Shown here: one piece after another, positions 16,460-56,770 of the stretch
Layout: each line of letters opens with the position of its first letter
Numbering within the stretch: the stretch's first letter is position 1
Origin: a virus
Lineage: Duplodnaviria; Caudoviricetes
IMG/VR virus record: IMGVR_UViG_3300027898_000001
Length of the DNA stretch: 64,000 nt
Direction: 5' to 3' (one strand)
Made by a program: the position numbers and the translations under genes
Notes under the pieces: model-generated
What the model saw: only the letters and a program-made list of their open reading frames with translations
Database searches by the model: none
Told to the model about the DNA's origin: nothing

Positions 16460-17707
16460 CTAAATTGCCATAGGTGTAGGGTTTTCTAACTTGCCTTTAT
16501 TCTTGTAACCAACAAACTTATAGTCGTCCGCAGTAGAGTTTTCTAAATCTTCCAATGTTTTGATGATAGGGTTAATTAAGAAACGTCCTCTGTTTTCTTC
16601 ATGAGGACCGCGTTCGATTTGCTCTCTAGCTGCATCCAAGTGTGTAACATAAATATGCGTATCACCAGTAAGATAAAATAAACTGCCAGGTGCAGTGTTC
16701 GTCACACGTGCCATCTTGTTCAACATCATATCGTAGCTTGCGATATTGAATGGACTTCCCAATACAAAATCGGCACTTCTCTGAAACATGATTAAGTCTA
16801 AACGGTGTCTGGGTACGTTCAAACTGTCCAATACTTCGTGTGTGAAAACGTCCCTTGAGAAAGCAGCTTTTGACACATTTGAATATATCCAATCGCCAAA
16901 TACTGTTAATTCTTTCTGTCTTGAAAGTCTTTCATTTCCATACCATTCTACATCATGTGTAACTCTTGCGTGTAATGCTTGTACGCGCTCGTGTAACATC
17001 AATTCAGTACACAAGTATTGCTGCAATACATGACAAGCAGGTAAAGCTATTTGCTCCAACACTGCTGGATTCCAACCTAAAACTAAAACACGGCGGCTGT
17101 TAGGTGATTTAATGATAGTATCTACAGCGTTCTTCAATTGATCTACTTCACGATACAGTACAAACACCGTAACTTTCTTTGTATCCAATTGCTTTGAATA
17201 CGTACCATCTAGTCGGTACCCCAATTTGATGTAATGTCTAAACATCTTATGTTCTTGTTCTTGTTTTAACTGACGTTCAGTTGTTGCTGATATGGGTCCG
17301 CGATTAACATCATCTGCAATTAATTCTTCACACTCAAACAACACGGTATCTTTCCAGCGACGCCACTGAGCACCATAAATAGGACCTAGATCGTCTGTAC
17401 CTTTACGAAATGTATTACTCAACCAAGCATTTGGATTAACACCATGTTCGTTAGCATTCTCGTACCATACGTTACAACCAGCAGCGCCAAAATCGGCAGC
17501 ACTTGTTTTACCTTGAATGAAACAACGTAGTTCACCAAGAACACTTTTAAGTGGTAATGATTTACTAGATACTGCATTTAAAGTAGTGCCGTAGTTAGTG
17601 TTGTATTCTGTTAGATTAACTACTTTACCTAGTGTATCAACACCAGTTCTGTTTTCGCGCACAGGACACGTAAGTAATTCTTCGACTGTTTTTAAATATG
17701 CTTCCAC
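16460..17707 (-). CDS. thyA: Thymidylate synthase ThyA with two large insertions
   Basis: LGPIYGAQWR, WNP, ALPACH, QRSAD..LG.PFNIASY, GDTHIY; 415 aa. Confidence 0.95.
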   Translation of the reverse strand: MEAYLKTVEELLTCPVRENRTGVDTLGKVVNLTEYNTNYGTTLNAVSSKSLPLKSVLGELRCFIQGKTSAADFGAAGCNVWYENANEHGVNPNAWLSNTFRKGTDDLGPIYGAQWRRWKDTVLFECEELIADDVNRGPISATTERQLKQEQEHKMFRHYIKLGYRLDGTYSKQLDTKKVTVFVLYREVDQLKNAVDTIIKSPNSRRVLVLGWNPAVLEQIALPACHVLQQYLCTELMLHERVQALHARVTHDVEWYGNERLSRQKELTVFGDWIYSNVSKAAFSRDVFTHEVLDSLNVPRHRLDLIMFQRSADFVLGSPFNIASYDMMLNKMARVTNTAPGSLFYLTGDTHIYVTHLDAAREQIERGPHEENRGRFLINPIIKTLEDLENSTADDYKFVGYKNKGKLENPTPMAI

Positions 17708-47925: not shown

Positions 47926-48723
47926 TCAACTTTCATTATGCACATCCTGATAACTTACAATGAACTTCGCTTTGCGTAACCAGTGATCGGCTAAGCATCG
48001 CATACAAGTGTGAGCAGATCGCGTACAATCACCATCGTGTTCAGCTTCCATCCAAACCATAAAATTAGGAACGCTAACACTACCTATATTATCACCGTCT
48101 TCGTGTGGCTCATCAATCTCATAACTGGCGAGAGCTAATGCAAGTTTTAAGATACGATTATCTTTAGCATCACGATTATCGAGTTGAGACCGTTTAATAG
48201 GATTTTCTTCAGGTTCAAATGGTACTACTATTGGATGACCATTAAAACTTTCAGATTCAGTTATTTTAGGTGTATGTTCTTCGTCAATAATACCTACAGA
48301 AATAAATGTAGTATCACGATCTACGATAACTCTATTTGCTGTTCCTAAATGCGATAGTTTTATTGTAGATACTGTTGACTCAGATACAATAGTAGCACTT
48401 GTGATTGTCGCAATATTTTGTAAAGCACCTTTTCTTAACTCACCGAATCCTGGTGCTTTACACGCAACTACTCTTATGTAACCACGTATCTTATTCACTA
48501 CTAGCGTAGATAACGCCTTGCCTATAATATCCTCAGCAATAATAATCAGTGGACGTTTTGAATTAATAACTTCCGTTAGTATAGGAAGAAAGGGTTCTAT
48601 TTCGTTGAGTTCTCCATCAACTAATAAAACATACGCATTTTCAAACACTACGTTCAATTCAGAATCGTTGTTAATAAAGTAAGGTGATAAGTAACCTTGA
48701 TCGAAACGTGTCTCGTCTATCAT
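47926..48723 (-). CDS. GroEL apical-domain protein fused to a C-terminal His/Cys motif
   Basis: RFDQGYLSPYFIN...PL.IIAED..G.AL.TLVVN..RG......KAPGFG..RK..L..IA..T...LG.A.RV....DTT; no equatorial ATPase domain; HDGDC....HTC.RC tail. Confidence 0.9.
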   Translation of the reverse strand: MIDETRFDQGYLSPYFINNDSELNVVFENAYVLLVDGELNEIEPFLPILTEVINSKRPLIIIAEDIIGKALSTLVVNKIRGYIRVVACKAPGFGELRKGALQNIATITSATIVSESTVSTIKLSHLGTANRVIVDRDTTFISVGIIDEEHTPKITESESFNGHPIVVPFEPEENPIKRSQLDNRDAKDNRILKLALALASYEIDEPHEDGDNIGSVSVPNFMVWMEAEHDGDCTRSAHTCMRCLADHWLRKAKFIVSYQDVHNES

Positions 48724-49535
48724 TGCCGTATCTCGTATTTATCAAGAATATGTTTAACAAGAGGTTTATTACTTGGTGTGCGAGTCAGACAATCAAAATC
48801 TATATCAACATCTGTTTTGCATTTCACCAACTTGTAGGACAGTCGCAAGTTATCTAATTGCTCTGATAACCTTTTACCTGTCGCACCCTTAATGTTGTCT
48901 ATATTAGCAACAATATTTTTCAGAGTACCATACTCTTTAATGAGCTTTAGTGCAATTACATCACCAACGCCGTACACACCAGGAATATGGTCAGTCTTAT
49001 CACCTTTCATTGCAAGAAAGTATGTTACTTGTTTTGGTGTTAAGCCTTTCTCTTCCAATAATGATTTCAACGTAGTACGTTTCTGTGCCTTAGTATCAAG
49101 CAAATCTACATACTTGGAAATAAACTGTGCGCAGTCTTTATCGCCAGTTAGAATTGTAAGCTGCATTTCATTTTCAGTGTAGTGCTTTGCAATAGTACCA
49201 AGAACATCGTCGGCTTCAACACCTTTTATATTCAACACTGGAAGTCCAAACGCGCGACATAGTTTGCGGATAATAGGTTTCTGTACCTTTAGGTCGTCTG
49301 GACACGGTTTGCGATGCAGTTTGTAATCGGCATATAAATCGTAACGGAAGTTTCTACTCTCATGGTCAAATGTCACGATTATGTTTTGCTGTTCACGTAA
49401 CAAAGGTTTTATCATGTGATAGAAGAATGTGATAACGCCAGTTGGTTCACCCTTTCTAGTAGTCAATTGGGCTTTGAAACTAGCGTAGTATGCACGGTAC
49501 AAATAGTAGTTACCATCTAGTACTAGAGTGCGCAT
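48720..49535 (-). CDS. 5'-3' exonuclease / flap endonuclease (Pol I N-terminal, T4 RNase H-like)
   Basis: VLDGN..LYR.Y, FD....FR...Y..YK..R, EADD..GT, GDKD, GD..D.IPGV.G.G. Confidence 0.95.
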   Translation of the reverse strand: MRTLVLDGNYYLYRAYYASFKAQLTTRKGEPTGVITFFYHMIKPLLREQQNIIVTFDHESRNFRYDLYADYKLHRKPCPDDLKVQKPIIRKLCRAFGLPVLNIKGVEADDVLGTIAKHYTENEMQLTILTGDKDCAQFISKYVDLLDTKAQKRTTLKSLLEEKGLTPKQVTYFLAMKGDKTDHIPGVYGVGDVIALKLIKEYGTLKNIVANIDNIKGATGKRLSEQLDNLRLSYKLVKCKTDVDIDFDCLTRTPSNKPLVKHILDKYEIRQ

Positions 49536-50035
49536 TATTTGACAACCGTTAATGTTGGTTTAGCTGGGAAGTGAGAGTTCTCGAAAAACTCTTTAGATTC
49601 TTTCTTGTTATATTTGGACGCAAGTGGATTAGGAATAATGTATATGGGTTCGCTTGGAGATCCAAAGTTATACTCAAAGTAGAATGCTTTATCCTCAGAG
49701 GGTGCAGAATCACCGGTGCTAACGCCAATAATATTCTCTAATGGCAATACACAGCGGAAAGGAACACCGTTAAATGTTGTGTTGAATGCAATAACAGCGT
49801 TCTCATAATCTATATTGTAGTTCGTCATGGAACGTGTCGCAGCACGTAGCGTTACTTTTTTACGATCTTGTAGGGATTTTGGTAATGATAGTTCGACTGG
49901 AGATAATAGGAGTATTTGGGCGCGCGAGAAACTAGGCTTTCTTGACAATTGTATATGTGGGTCGTAACCCATCATAGACAACATGTTGATGTGGTTTTGT
50001 ACTACTTCGATATTGGTGCAGAACTGTTTTAACAT
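49535..50035 (-). CDS. sspB: SspB-like ClpXP adaptor, copy 1
   Basis: F...FNG.P....+PL..I+.+ core and C-terminal KPTLTVVK (E. coli XB tail RPALRVVK). Confidence 0.75.
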   Translation of the reverse strand: MLKQFCTNIEVVQNHINMLSMMGYDPHIQLSRKPSFSRAQILLLSPVELSLPKSLQDRKKVTLRAATRSMTNYNIDYENAVIAFNTTFNGVPFRCVLPLENIIGVSTGDSAPSEDKAFYFEYNFGSPSEPIYIIPNPLASKYNKKESKEFFENSHFPAKPTLTVVK

Positions 50036-50044
50036 GATTATCGC

Positions 50045-50079
50045 CTGTAAATATAGTTAAGTTCATAGTATATTTACAG
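50045..50079 (-). promoter_or_regulatory. 11-bp inverted repeat containing the CTGTAAATA motif and overlapping the sspB RBS
   Basis: CTGTAAATATA (50045-50055) / TATATTTACAG (50069-50079). Confidence 0.55.
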
Positions 50080-50104
50080 TATTTGTAGAAAATGGTTTAT
50101 CCCC

Positions 50105-50400
50105 AGAGTACAAACTACTAGCAATAGGATGATGTGTATAACCTAATGTTTTCGCTACAACAGTACAGGCAAGGATGCTGTGAGTATAGCTGAACCCTAT
50201 TGTACGCGGTCATTTGGGTGGATTTTTCACTCACCCCGTCATACAACAACTGTGATAAACCTGCGAATGATTAACGGCTCTACGCTGCTCTAATGCAACG
50301 CCTTACAATAAAGCATAAGGTTCGCTTACCGAGTACGTGTGATCCTTCTTAATGCAAACCACCTAGATCACGCAACGCATGTACTAATGCTATCGCTCAC
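50105..50400 (-). ncRNA. Unclassified structured RNA element, copy A
   Basis: ORF-free ~370-nt gap; many complementary stems; four ordered sequence blocks shared with copy B. Confidence 0.65.
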
Positions 50401-50407
50401 TTCCAAC

Positions 50408-50773
50408 TCAAGCTATTCTTGCACGTCTACGACTTTCAAATTCTTGGAATCTTGTTGTGTAGAATTCATCGTAATGTTCTTCCAATTTATGGACAGCATT
50501 TTCAATTATTTCTACAATATTTTGTACCTGAATTTTCTTAGATTGTTGTGTTATAGGTTGTTCGTCTAACCAAATCGTTAACCATTCTTTTAGTTCGCGT
50601 GCAACTTCTTTGGCATCATTTTTACACACAACAATATATTTATGTAAGTCTGAGAATACCAAACCTTTAGTGTCACTACCAACACGATGGTCTATGTAAT
50701 ATTCTGTTTTTGTTTCTTTGTGTGTTACAGAAACTGAACCACCATCACGGTGCATTGCTATATAAACTGTCAT
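50408..50773 (-). CDS. Hypothetical protein with RDGGSV motif
   Basis: 121-aa ORF, coupled to its upstream neighbour. Confidence 0.7.
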   Translation of the reverse strand: MTVYIAMHRDGGSVSVTHKETKTEYYIDHRVGSDTKGLVFSDLHKYIVVCKNDAKEVARELKEWLTIWLDEQPITQQSKKIQVQNIVEIIENAVHKLEEHYDEFYTTRFQEFESRRRARIA

Positions 50774-51108
50774 TCAATATTTCTCGGTTCGTAACAGGTA
50801 ACGTAATCTTTGCAACGATCTGCACACAGATTAAGCATTTTACGGTGATATTCGTTTTCAGTTTTCTTGGCCCATGTAATACAATTAACTGCCAATTCAT
50901 TACAATCTTGTTCTGATACAGATAATCTACCCATAACTGTATCGTAAACAGGTGCACCTATCATACCTAATGATTCACAAGCAATACCACCGCGTATCAT
51001 GTACCGCTTTTTATTGAACTCGAATAATACCGAACCACCGTCACGCACGGTACGAAATTCAGGGTATTCAATTTCTTCATTTTTAGGTAAGGTTATGTCA
51101 ATATTCAT
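50770..51108 (-). CDS. Hypothetical protein with RDGGSV motif
   Basis: 112-aa ORF, ATGA overlaps. Confidence 0.7.
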   Translation of the reverse strand: MNIDITLPKNEEIEYPEFRTVRDGGSVLFEFNKKRYMIRGGIACESLGMIGAPVYDTVMGRLSVSEQDCNELAVNCITWAKKTENEYHRKMLNLCADRCKDYVTCYEPRNIE

Positions 51109-51323
51109 TTTGCTAATCTCTTTCTAGCAGAATCGCACAATGCCATCATTTGACTGCGTACGGTAAACCATTCACCTTCCGGTACTCTTGTATCTGTTCT
51201 ACCTGCTAGAGCATACATACGGTTTATATCACGACCTAAGAATAAAGCTCTTTGCGTAGCGCAATGTATTTCACAATAACCGATAAATTCTTCATCAGTC
51301 ATTTCATTATCTTGTTGTGTCAT
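51105..51323 (-). CDS. Hypothetical protein
   Basis: 72 aa, AAGGTG RBS. Confidence 0.7.
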   Translation of the reverse strand: MTQQDNEMTDEEFIGYCEIHCATQRALFLGRDINRMYALAGRTDTRVPEGEWFTVRSQMMALCDSARKRLAK

Positions 51324-51360
51324 AATACACCTTATCTAAGTGAAATTAAAAATGATTGTT

Positions 51361-51630
51361 CCTGTCACAAATATCTTTCGATAAGTGTAGGCTACAGCAG
51401 TTGGGCGGAATCGGAGTATACCGAACTACCAGACATAACAATCTGCGGTTGATTGACGGCTCTGCGCCTTTCGGGAGTAGGATAAAGACGCTTACCTAGT
51501 TGAATGAGGTTGAAACATAAGAACCTAAGTAAGTCCGCATACCGTGCAGTTTAGCTACGCTGTTACAACAACCATATTTCCGAAGCGTAGTCACCATACC
51601 TATGTTTTAGGTGAATGTGAAACTGCAAAC
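51361..51630 (-). ncRNA. Unclassified structured RNA element, copy B
   Basis: ORF-free ~310-nt gap; TATC-GAAA-GATA tetraloop hairpin, 9-bp CTTACTTAG/CTAGGTAAG stem, TGCAGTTT/AAACTGCA stem; blocks shared with copy A. Confidence 0.65.
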
Positions 51631-51633
51631 ACT

Positions 51634-52259: not shown

Positions 52260-52613
52260 CTACACTGTTACAGCAACATCGTTATAACGAACATACTCAG
52301 CCAAAGTGAGAGGTAACTTGGCTTCAATTGCGGCATGATCGAATAAGGTTGCATCGTAACCTGAAGCGGACATAGCGTTCCAATCAATCGAGCTATCATC
52401 GAATGGTAAGAATGTAACAGTATTAGAACCAGTTGTGACTGTTGTACTATTGATAGTTGTTGAATTAATAAACATGCGTTCAAACTCGCGCGCTAACTCT
52501 AGTGAGGCATCCTCAGAAACACAAACTATTGCTGTTTTTGAATGTTTACTTGAGGACTTGAACGCGCTTGTCAACATATTCAATGTACGGCTGCTTCCTT
52601 TTAGTGCTGTCAT
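52260..52613 (-). CDS. Hypothetical protein
   Basis: 117 aa, coupled to sspB copy 2. Confidence 0.7.
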   Translation of the reverse strand: MTALKGSSRTLNMLTSAFKSSSKHSKTAIVCVSEDASLELAREFERMFINSTTINSTTVTTGSNTVTFLPFDDSSIDWNAMSASGYDATLFDHAAIEAKLPLTLAEYVRYNDVAVTV

Positions 52614-53020
52614 TTTACTACTCTCAATTTAGGTTTTTGTTTACTGAAAACTCGCATCATTTTAAAGTCCTTAGGATCGAATTCAAATATAATCTCATCA
52701 CCGCTTGATTTAAGCATAGGGATATATTCAACAGGTACTTTAAACTCCGCATTGTCTTCTACGCGGTTAAATGACAAAACACCGCTTTCATAACACATAC
52801 GCATGTTACGTACTGTAACATCCCACAACGGTACTGTTATGTACTCCTCATCAGCATAATCATTTGGTAATACTAATTCTGCGTTTGGAAGTGGGGATGT
52901 TGCATTAGTCCTATCTAAATATGGTTGTTTAGATACCACTAAGACTGGCACCAGATGCAAATCTATAATGCAGTCATAATAGCTACATAGTGTGTATGCA
53001 GTAATACAGGAAAAGATCAT
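52610..53020 (-). CDS. sspB: SspB-like ClpXP adaptor, copy 2
   Basis: Y.L.SYYD.IID..L.P.L+V...+.+......VRN+....E...+SF core; C-terminal KPKLRVVK. Confidence 0.7.
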   Translation of the reverse strand: MIFSCITAYTLCSYYDCIIDLHLVPVLVVSKQPYLDRTNATSPLPNAELVLPNDYADEEYITVPLWDVTVRNMRMCYESGVLSFNRVEDNAEFKVPVEYIPMLKSSGDEIIFEFDPKDFKMMRVFSKQKPKLRVVK

Positions 53021-55537: not shown

Positions 55538-56342
55538 TTGGACCTCCAGCAACGTGTACGCTAGCAGGTACAATACCAGAAAGTGCTAATGCTAAGAATG
55601 CGCTAGTATCTTTGCCCGCTTCATAGTGTTCGACAAATGCGTTGCGTGTGTGCTGCGACCAAGGCTCACCACCACAGCAGCTAAAGTCAGGACAACATTC
55701 ATCCCGCACATTGTTATGTAGGAATTGCCCCATCTGCCACTTCTTCATTTGCATATAACTTGTTGCTGGGCCGCTTCTAACTTGATGTAAGTTAAAATCA
55801 CGTAAGCTATCAATGCGCATAAACTTGCCGCCACATTCAACATCAATATTCCAAGGAGCATTAACTAACACAGGTACTTTACACGCTTCTTTAGTGAAAG
55901 CATCCATACAGTGCTCCACAGTATCATCAAAGAAGTAATCAACTTTACCGAATGTTTTGAGAATAAAATCTGCTTTGCTATCAAACAGTGGTAATACATG
56001 CAAAGAGCTGTAATTAACCCTGTGCTGTCTAAGCCAAATATCCGATTTTACTTTACCGTTAGGATCGAAACCTCTGTTAGTAACAAAATGAATATCGTGG
56101 TCGTCTTTATACAACTGATTGATTAACCACAATCCTGGTTTAGGTCTAGCCGTAGTAAACAAATCAGAATCGGTAATGTGCTTTAGCCATTCTTCGATAG
56201 GAATGTTTAAATATTCATGGGTAGCGCGTTTATTCCACTCGCGCCAATGTAACACGTTGGGGTCAATCTTTGCAGCCAATTCACCAAATTCTGGAAGTGC
56301 ATTGACAACAGTGTCATCAAGATCAAATACAAATACACTCAT
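55524..56342 (-). CDS. HAD-family 5'(3')-deoxyribonucleotidase-like protein fused to a Cys-rich ECCPDFSCC domain
   Basis: FDLDDTVV (motif I), FVTNR (II), SK (III), FFDD (IV), APWN. Confidence 0.85.
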   Translation of the reverse strand: MSVFVFDLDDTVVNALPEFGELAAKIDPNVLHWREWNKRATHEYLNIPIEEWLKHITDSDLFTTARPKPGLWLINQLYKDDHDIHFVTNRGFDPNGKVKSDIWLRQHRVNYSSLHVLPLFDSKADFILKTFGKVDYFFDDTVEHCMDAFTKEACKVPVLVNAPWNIDVECGGKFMRIDSLRDFNLHQVRSGPATSYMQMKKWQMGQFLHNNVRDECCPDFSCCGGEPWSQHTRNAFVEHYEAGKDTSAFLALALSGIVPASVHVAGGPNETH

Positions 56343-56770
56343 TTTAATGCCTTTGTTTGTTGATGAAAGAATAACGTGGCATCATTATAATACCACGTAT
56401 CCATCAGAGAGCGAATTTTCGATAATGGGAGCTTGTCGTACGGTGGTAATACGTGAAGTCCAAACTCTTCTGGAACGAATTGTGATGAAGTGCGTAGAAG
56501 TTCAAATATCCAAGAGGCGGGGTGCATATCACTTCTACATTCTATGTTTACAGATTCTAGCTTTGATTTCAATAAGCCATATTGATTTACGACAAAGAAG
56601 CGTCTGGCAATTTGCAGCATTAGATTGTCACACCTCGTAATGATTGCAGATTTCTCCTCACCCGTCATTCCATTCCATTGAACTATCTCGTGACAAAAAC
56701 GCTTGCAGCCTTTACATACATCATCACCAAGAGTAGTTGAGCACGTACCAACACATAGCGTTTTAATCAT
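56339..56770 (-). CDS. DUF1289-family (putative Fe-S) protein, long proteobacterial form
   Basis: CVG.CST..GD.VC.GCKR..HE+..WN....EEK.AI. Confidence 0.8.
   Translation of the reverse strand: MIKTLCVGTCSTTLGDDVCKGCKRFCHEIVQWNGMTGEEKSAIITRCDNLMLQIARRFFVVNQYGLLKSKLESVNIECRSDMHPASWIFELLRTSSQFVPEEFGLHVLPPYDKLPLSKIRSLMDTWYYNDATLFFHQQTKALK

Follow-up and report, generated by a model that had tools for sequence, protein, structure and literature searches.

The question raised by this locus is what occupies the two largest stretches without an open reading frame (ORF) in a 64,000-nucleotide (nt) piece of viral DNA (IMG/VR record IMGVR_UViG_3300027898_000001; Duplodnaviria, Caudoviricetes), the whole of which is called the window here. 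This stretch belongs to the genome (~260 kb) of a jumbo phage that was assembled from a freshwater metagenome, and a tail protein of this phage is 40-45% identical to those of Pseudomonas phages PaBG, Lu11 and HRDY3, a distant kinship. From 47.9 kb onward all window genes are on the minus strand. A first-pass annotation of the DNA proposed that two ORF-free gaps in this part, A (50036-50407) and B (51324-51633), carry homologous structured non-coding RNAs whose core is conserved and whose peripheral helices vary. That interpretation is supported by eight further copies from related phages and by strong covariation among them. The gaps almost certainly hold two paralogous copies of an undescribed structured RNA family, ~270-310 nt in length, made from the minus strand within the transcripts of the flanking genes. 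The family is real, pseudoknotted and new to the catalogues.

The gaps, which had been singled out as large ORF-free stretches, are indeed the largest two in the window. Their G+C content is 0.41-0.42, compared with 0.25-0.36 in the remaining spacers, and they score as non-coding in all six frames. A 25-nt block reported on the same strand of both gaps was found as described, with 21 of 25 positions identical (50261-50285 in A and 51443-51467 in B), and blastn across the window recovers this core at 23/28 (E 0.02). When the window copies are compared with each other, clear similarity is limited to this core of 25-36 nt. A chain score over the whole gaps exceeds that of shuffled sequences, yet it falls at about the top 1% when real window segments are used for comparison. 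The other shared blocks of the first-pass annotation did not all survive. With the core left out, the flank with the blocks GCTACA... and GAGTATA.. is no closer between the copies than random window segments are (p ~0.2), and the flank of the block CGCTTACC.AG is marginally similar only (p ~0.03). The pairing of CUCGGUAAGCGAAC in copy A with CUAGGUAAGCG at 51489-51499 in copy B was a false match; alignment with relatives shows that the true partner in copy B is CACGGUAUGCGGAC at ~51533-51546, ~40 nt further upstream on the RNA, and that CUAGGUAAGCG belongs to a variable hairpin, as its 3' arm. The observation was thus confirmed in part: the core exists, two blocks do not rise above chance and one had been given the wrong partner. 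Single-sequence folding energies of the two copies are unremarkable (z -0.2 to -1.1), the structure conservation index of the A-versus-B alignment is low (0.16-0.28) with no conserved structure visible, and the copies disagree in the unpaired-probability profile of the core. On their own, the window copies defend only a short shared motif, and structure is not provable from the two. Two freshwater DNA runs carry an identical phage sequence and therefore offer no variation to exploit.

Relatives were reached with the 5'-3' exonuclease encoded two genes downstream (48720-49535) as bait, which has Logan metagenome relatives that are 48-61% identical. Seven Logan contigs of related phages were fetched, and their proteins are 22-61% identical to those of the window. 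The contigs share a gene order, in which a member of the family of the window's 121-amino-acid (aa) protein comes first and is followed by a gap of 290-360 nt without an ORF, a gene that Pfam recognises as SspB (PF04386), a few small genes and the exonuclease. This agrees with the earlier placement of copy A ahead of sspB, as the 166-aa protein encoded there is homologous to the proteins of the relatives that Pfam calls SspB. In three genomes (the window and contigs L042 and L043) there is a second gap 1.3-1.7 kb upstream, located after a homologue of the 119-aa gene in the window or at the equivalent place. A sequence-only model made from copies A and B finds the core exactly in the syntenic ORF-free gaps, with E values down to 2e-8. 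The resulting set comprises ten copies, namely A and B of the window plus eight from the related contigs, and a model that includes two of the helices described below, H1 and H2 (model R2), recovers all ten at E values of 1e-35 to 1e-56. At least six related phages, all of them uncultivated freshwater jumbo phages, have conserved the RNA. It usually lies directly before the gene of an SspB-like ClpXP adaptor, and a genome has one or two copies, in differing gene contexts. Between phages the proteins flanking the RNA are only 22-46% identical and the core hardly varies, which implies strong selection on the RNA itself. Contig L040 retains the RNA though sspB is absent at that place; a possible third copy in this contig (4344-4467, E 0.064) lies within a coding region and was rejected as noise. 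The RNA is not present in all large gaps of these phages: a 288-nt gap in contig L044 (858-1145; G+C 0.36) lacks the core and holds TGTAAATA boxes, which are considered below.

The ten copies have a common architecture. Each begins with one or more variable 5' hairpins that start 0-11 nt after the upstream stop codon and are followed by an A-rich linker. Next come CGGY, two nucleotides and the 5' strand of helix H1 (GCGRA). A variable hairpin of 6-10 base pairs (P-a) follows, and then a second hairpin (P-b) that starts and ends with CG. The next segment is a nearly invariant strand that reads AGAGCCGUUA(0-3 nt)AUCA and is followed by the 3' strand of H1 and AG. H2 is a long-range helix of 7-8 base pairs that closes a 3' domain of 76-152 nt. 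This domain contains a hairpin, H3, which in most copies lies 4-7 nt past the H2 5' strand and which has a loop of the GAG..AAA.UCC type. A GAG-type strand in the H3 loop pairs with a CUC-type strand 3' of H3, forming a pseudoknot (H5). The domain ends with the pyrimidine motif UCCUUGCC, a variable hairpin and the H2 3' strand, after which there is a U-rich tail. CGGY and the sequence GCCG in the nearly invariant strand are proposed to pair as S1, which together with H1 would make an H-type pseudoknot. The hairpins listed by the first-pass annotation are largely real, since two of those in copy A correspond to P-a and P-b and one in copy B corresponds to P-b. The 5' domain of copy B (83 nt) gives the sole notable folding z-score of the region (-2.54; 2/200 shuffles). 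It has no sequence counterpart in copy A, and multi-hairpin 5' domains of the same kind, with a closing helix that abuts CGG, are present in the second gaps of L042 and L043.

The evidence for this fold is the manner in which the strands of the helices change together. H1 occurs as GCGAA/UUCGC, GCGGG/CCCGC, GCAG/CUGC and UCGG/CCGA. H2 differs in nearly every copy and still pairs (GGUUUAUC/GAUAAACC, GUGUGCG/CGCACAC, GUACACG/CGUGUAC and ACUCAACC/GGUUGAGU), and the strands of H5 covary as well (GUGAG/CUCAC, GUGAGAG/CUCUCAC, GGAGA/UCUCC and GAGGC/GCCUC). The MAFFT alignment of the ten copies (A4) used no structural information and was fitted to no structure. In A4, 89.4% of the cells of H1, H2 and S1 are paired compared with 24-50% when the partners are slid, and double-sided changes are found at 11 of 17 pairs (30 cells); the observed values were reached by 0/500 shuffles. 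All seven pairs of H2 and four of the six pairs of H1 are compensatory. P-a, P-b and H3 were sought at homologous positions only, and their summed helix scores of 74.5, 49.5 and 76 exceed shuffled means of 47, 24 and 56, respectively (z 7.2, 7.5 and 5.5; 0/300 shuffles each). S1 bases are invariant except at Y14, where U-G and C-G both fit. G-U pairs make up 47 of the 343 helix pairs and would be mismatches if read on the opposite strand. Therefore, the RNA is made from the minus strand of the window, the strand that the first-pass annotation took to be transcribed, and readings at the level of DNA or of the plus strand are excluded.

This covariation decides against the explanation that the gaps do not encode an RNA but contain a decayed duplicate of a gene, or a motif in the DNA for protein binding or recombination. 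The core in the window can be read as codons in two frames and the two copies flank a three-gene cassette, but there are compensatory changes in at least five helices and the 47 G-U pairs function on one strand only. A coding gene or pseudogene was rejected because there are stops in all frames, coding scores are negative and the core carries 1- and 2-nt indels. The codon-like readings E[QR]RRAVN (minus strand) and LR[ML]I[ND]GS (plus strand) were discarded since the indels in relatives break the frame and there is no coding signal. The gap sequences have no tblastx or PHROG similarity and match no protein family. The first-pass annotation had itself raised a decayed gene, or a lack of conservation in relatives, as what would speak against an RNA; conservation and covariation are both present, and this explanation is refuted to the point of being scarcely credible.

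The earlier statement that the RNA belongs to no recognised family also holds. The 4227 models of Rfam 15 give zero matches at the gathering threshold in the window and six related loci, and at E up to 10 there is only noise under 16 bits in the window and relatives. ARAGORN finds no tRNA or tmRNA in the window and there is no Rfam tmRNA match. Cobalamin riboswitch models RF00174, RF01482 and RF01689 have no match at E up to 10. No description of the RNA was found in the literature searched, and the family is new in that sense and in having no Rfam match. Its distribution is narrow. Model R2 finds nothing credible in PaBG, HRDY3, Lu11, NCTB or an IMG/VR relative; a match in Lu11 (E 0.08) is a 28-nt fragment and was set aside as noise. 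PaBG, HRDY3, Lu11 and NCTB have no core at three or fewer mismatches and no match to model R1, and blastn of the region against an isolate phage collection gave no match. Exact-pattern matches to the core in IMG/VR, JGI metagenomes and 185,000 prokaryote genomes were dismissed as chance occurrences in G+C-rich coding DNA, and the family appears, from these scans of sequence, to be absent from the three collections. The SspB-like protein as bait found no relatives by word search, by tblastn or in IMG/VR, and an alignment search with the upstream 121-aa family found none beyond the contigs reached via the exonuclease.

The position of the RNA within the operon bears on what it might do. It begins so close to the upstream stop codon that a promoter of its own would not fit between them, and most simply it is therefore part of a polycistronic transcript. 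The distance from the end of H2 to the next start codon is 24-31 nt in seven of ten copies, and a U-rich stretch and a ribosome-binding site lie between them. In the remaining three copies (copy A of the window and the sspB-proximal copies of L042 and L043), a TGTAAATA box and a hairpin are inserted before the gene, and the hairpin carries a U tract in L042 and L043. By inspection, the downstream ribosome-binding sites, which are of the AGGAG type, are complementary to a conserved motif of the UCCUU type. Scans for sigma-70 promoters and terminators were at chance level, and a search for targets by duplex energy against the window transcripts gave nothing convincing. The RNA would act as an intercistronic leader in cis, folding while the polycistronic RNA is made. 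Its conserved pseudoknot pocket would bind a small molecule or a protein, and binding would determine how the next cistron, whose start is 24-31 nt beyond H2, is translated or how stable it is; a part may also be played by the Shine-Dalgarno-complementary UCCUU motif. We infer such a cis-acting intercistronic regulatory RNA, with a pseudoknot pocket that senses a ligand or protein and tunes the next cistron, at a probability of roughly 0.4.

Several points weigh against this cis-acting leader. Its ligand or protein partner is a postulate of the model. At 270-310 nt and with two pseudoknots, the RNA is larger than most riboswitch aptamers. Pairing of UCCUU with a ribosome-binding site is expected for any pyrimidine-rich motif. 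In copy A, L042 and L043 the promoter-like box and hairpin separate the RNA from sspB, and direct control of its ribosome-binding site is therefore less likely there. Because L040 has the RNA without sspB, the link to SspB is not obligatory. The copies come from about seven related phages, so part of the covariation counts reflects shared ancestry, and the S1 pairing is drawn from invariant bases. Among the sequencing runs listed as carrying the phage, all are DNA metagenomes and none is RNA. A broader proposal, in which the family represents large pseudoknotted RNAs of a new class, either regulatory or catalytic (a riboswitch-like sensor or a ribozyme), that is specific to a clade of freshwater jumbo phages and controls SspB-like ClpXP adaptors and neighbouring small genes in cis during infection, is possible but rather doubtful.

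Other roles can be imagined for a large RNA in this place. It may be excised from the polycistronic transcript as a stable trans-acting non-coding RNA or ribonucleoprotein scaffold, acting for instance with proteins, of the host or of the phage, in the block concerned with ClpXP/SspB quality control. A large, multi-domain, doubly pseudoknotted molecule with a nearly invariant junction would suit such a role, as would its retention in L040 without sspB, its one or two copies per genome in differing gene contexts and the promoter-like box and hairpin that lie between RNA and gene in three copies. However, no promoter or terminator of its own is visible, the upstream stop codon is abutted, the tight spacing to the start codon in seven of ten copies suggests coupling with the gene and there is no significant complementarity to other window transcripts, and a trans-acting RNA seems unlikely. 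A self-cleaving ribozyme that processes the polycistronic mRNA between cistrons is unlikelier again. The size, complexity and invariant pseudoknotted core are within the range of catalytic RNAs and the intercistronic position would suit processing, but the known self-cleaving classes are much smaller, no Rfam ribozyme matches at E up to 10 and no catalytic motif is recognisable.

The placement of one or two copies within long same-strand operons, along with the U-tract hairpin between the RNA and sspB in L042 and L043, would fit a processive antitermination RNA such as HK022 put or Bacillus EAR, which modify polymerase to read through terminators. Such a function is improbable, since put (~70 nt) and EAR (~120 nt) do not resemble this RNA, most copies have no downstream terminator and there is no Rfam match. 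A remnant of a group I intron, in which a P3-P4-P5 plus P4'-P6 region persists without the catalytic P7-P3'-P8, is largely refuted by the anatomy and has only a slim chance of being correct. CGGUAAGCGGA with the hairpin after it looks like P3-J3/4-P4-P5, AAUCAACCGCAG is similar to the classical Q element, and H1 abuts H2 in the way that P4 abuts P6. However, neither RF00028 nor GIR1 matches at E up to 10, the topology is different in that the CGGY partner precedes the H1 3' strand, and the 24-31 nt after H2 in seven of ten copies leave no room for P7, P3', P8 and P9. An intact group I intron was rejected for the same spacing, with no P7/P3'/P8 helix found, and because the flanking ORFs are complete genes with their own starts, ribosome-binding sites and separate homologues, the downstream one encoding a full SspB domain. 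The coordinates of both copies are given in Table 1.

Table 1. Positions in the window of the two RNA copies, their parts and the genes on either side of copy A.
Feature	Position	Strand	Remarks
RNA copy A, whole (first 5' hairpin to H2 3' strand and U-rich tail)	50088-50396	-	R2 match 50089-50341, 137.6 bits, E 4e-43
Copy A, variable 5' hairpins (S0)	50339-50396	-	11 nt past stop codon of 121-aa gene
Copy A, CGGU (proposed S1 5' strand), AA linker, GCGAA (H1 5' strand)	50321-50331	-	
Copy A, variable hairpins P-a (CCUUAU/GUAAGG) and P-b (CGUUGC/GCAGCG)	50283-50320	-	
Copy A, nearly invariant junction AGAGCCGUUAAUCA, then UUCGC (H1 3' strand)	50263-50281	-	Junction holds GCCG (proposed S1 3' strand)
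Copy A, H2 5' strand GGUUUAUC	50254-50261	-	
Copy A, 3' domain including H3 (UUGUUGUAUG/CGUACAAUAG)	50168-50249	-	
Copy A, H5 pseudoknot (GUGAG with CUCAC)	50230-50234 with 50180-50184	-	
Copy A, pyrimidine motif UCCUUGCC	50168-50175	-	
Copy A, H2 3' strand GAUAAACC	50094-50101	-	Followed by AUUUUC
Spacer from RNA copy A to sspB-like start	50036-50087	-	Outside RNA family; ends in ribosome-binding region; same layout in L042 and L043
TGTAAATA box within 11-base-pair hairpin of spacer 50036-50087	50071-50078	-	
RNA copy B, whole	51348-51627	-	R2 match 51348-51554, 116.4 bits, E 3e-36
Copy B, 5' three-way-junction domain (S0)	51545-51627	-	Closed by UGCAGUUU/AAACUGCA; abuts CGGU
Copy B, CGGU (S1 5' strand, proposed), AU linker, UGCGG (H1 5' strand)	51535-51544	-	Counterpart of copy A CUCGGUAAGCG
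Copy B, P-a (CUUACUUAG/CUAGGUAAG) and P-b (CGUCUUU/AAAGGCG)	51465-51533	-	
Copy B, junction AGAGCCGUCAAUCA and H1 3' strand CCGCA	51444-51463	-	
Copy B, H2 5' strand GAUUGUU	51437-51443	-	
Copy B, H2 3' strand AACAAUC	51354-51360	-	Followed by AUUUUU; start codon of 72-aa gene 30 nt beyond
SspB-like gene downstream of copy A	49535-50035	-	22-35% identical to PF04386 proteins of relatives; weak matches to solved SspB structures
121-aa gene upstream of copy A	50408-50773	-	Conserved family upstream of RNA in relatives

The window encodes two paralogous SspB-like proteins on the minus strand (49535-50035 and 52610-53020) that are 28% identical (E 3e-5). Both end in a tail that resembles a ClpX-docking sequence (..LTVVK and ..LRVVK), and orthologues of both are present in the related contigs, with Pfam recognising several of them as SspB. 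The TGTAAATA box is one base off the T4 late-promoter consensus. In three genomes a hairpin comes after the box, and both lie between the RNA and sspB. The places noted are 50046-50078 in the window, ~4935-4990 in L042, ~4640-4680 in L043 and 858-900 in L044. Three of the six minus-strand boxes in the window lie 22-36 nt before the starts of minus-strand genes (18535, 50035 and 61765), and the box is not enriched in the window overall. The 121-aa protein upstream of copy A and the 112-aa protein encoded next to it (50770-51108, minus strand) have an RDGGSV motif in common and are weakly paralogous. Across seven phages a DHR.G..T.G.VF motif is invariant in the 121-aa family, and its member in the window ends in an arginine-rich tail (..SRRRARIA). 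Elsewhere on the minus strand, the match of a 265-aa protein (47926-48723) to GroEL is confined to the apical part (Pfam Cpn60 236-328; PHROG groEL 190-343) and is followed by a C-terminal half that is unrelated. Thymidylate synthase (16460-17707) is 415 aa long and covers ~273 profile positions (PHROG 160), and therefore has ~100 extra residues, either an insertion or an unrecognised intervening element. A 143-aa protein (56339-56770) has an N-terminal DUF1289 (E 1e-13) and lies amid proteins that otherwise match no family.

The RNA can be compared with several known systems. Like ROOL, GOLLD, OLE, raiA and HEARO, it has hundreds of nucleotides, many helices, pseudoknots and highly conserved junction nucleotides, and was recognised by covariation while its function is not evident from sequence; several of those RNAs occur in phages. 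Unlike them, it is intercistronic, abuts a stop codon, keeps a fixed distance to the next start codon and is so far limited to one freshwater jumbo phage clade, and it matches none of them in sequence or structure (Rfam 15). It resembles pseudoknot riboswitches (of the cobalamin, SAM-II and preQ1-II types) and the leaders of T4 gene 32 and of ribosomal proteins in lying in cis ahead of a coding region, and in having a pocket-like pseudoknot core, variable peripheral helices and an anti-Shine-Dalgarno-like pyrimidine motif. It differs from them in being larger than typical aptamers, in matching no model, in having no recognisable expression platform and in the box and hairpin that separate three copies from the gene. 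The GGUGAG.GAAAAAUCC stretch in some copies recalls the GGUGA.AAUCC of cobalamin riboswitches. This resemblance (GGUGAG..AAAUCC) is local and is missing from several copies. The likeness to a group I intron core extends to the P and Q elements, the abutting of H1 and H2 in the manner of P4 and P6 and an A-rich joining strand, but no P1 splice site is apparent, a P7 guanosine-binding helix, P8 and P9 are missing, the pseudoknot has another topology, each flanking ORF is a gene in its own right and RF00028 does not match. HK022 putL/putR and EAR are also structured RNAs inside phage or operon transcripts, with two copies per phage genome, and would share action in cis with the present RNA; they are much shorter, and their fold is unrelated.

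Large and intricately folded RNA families are rarely found, and earlier ones opened new biochemistry, including riboswitches, ribozymes and RNA cages. The RNA described here has a fixed position within a gene block for two SspB-like ClpXP adaptors, and its presence in one or two copies per genome is a simple genetic handle. It may thus provide a testable entry into the regulation of accessory genes at the level of RNA in uncultivated jumbo phages.

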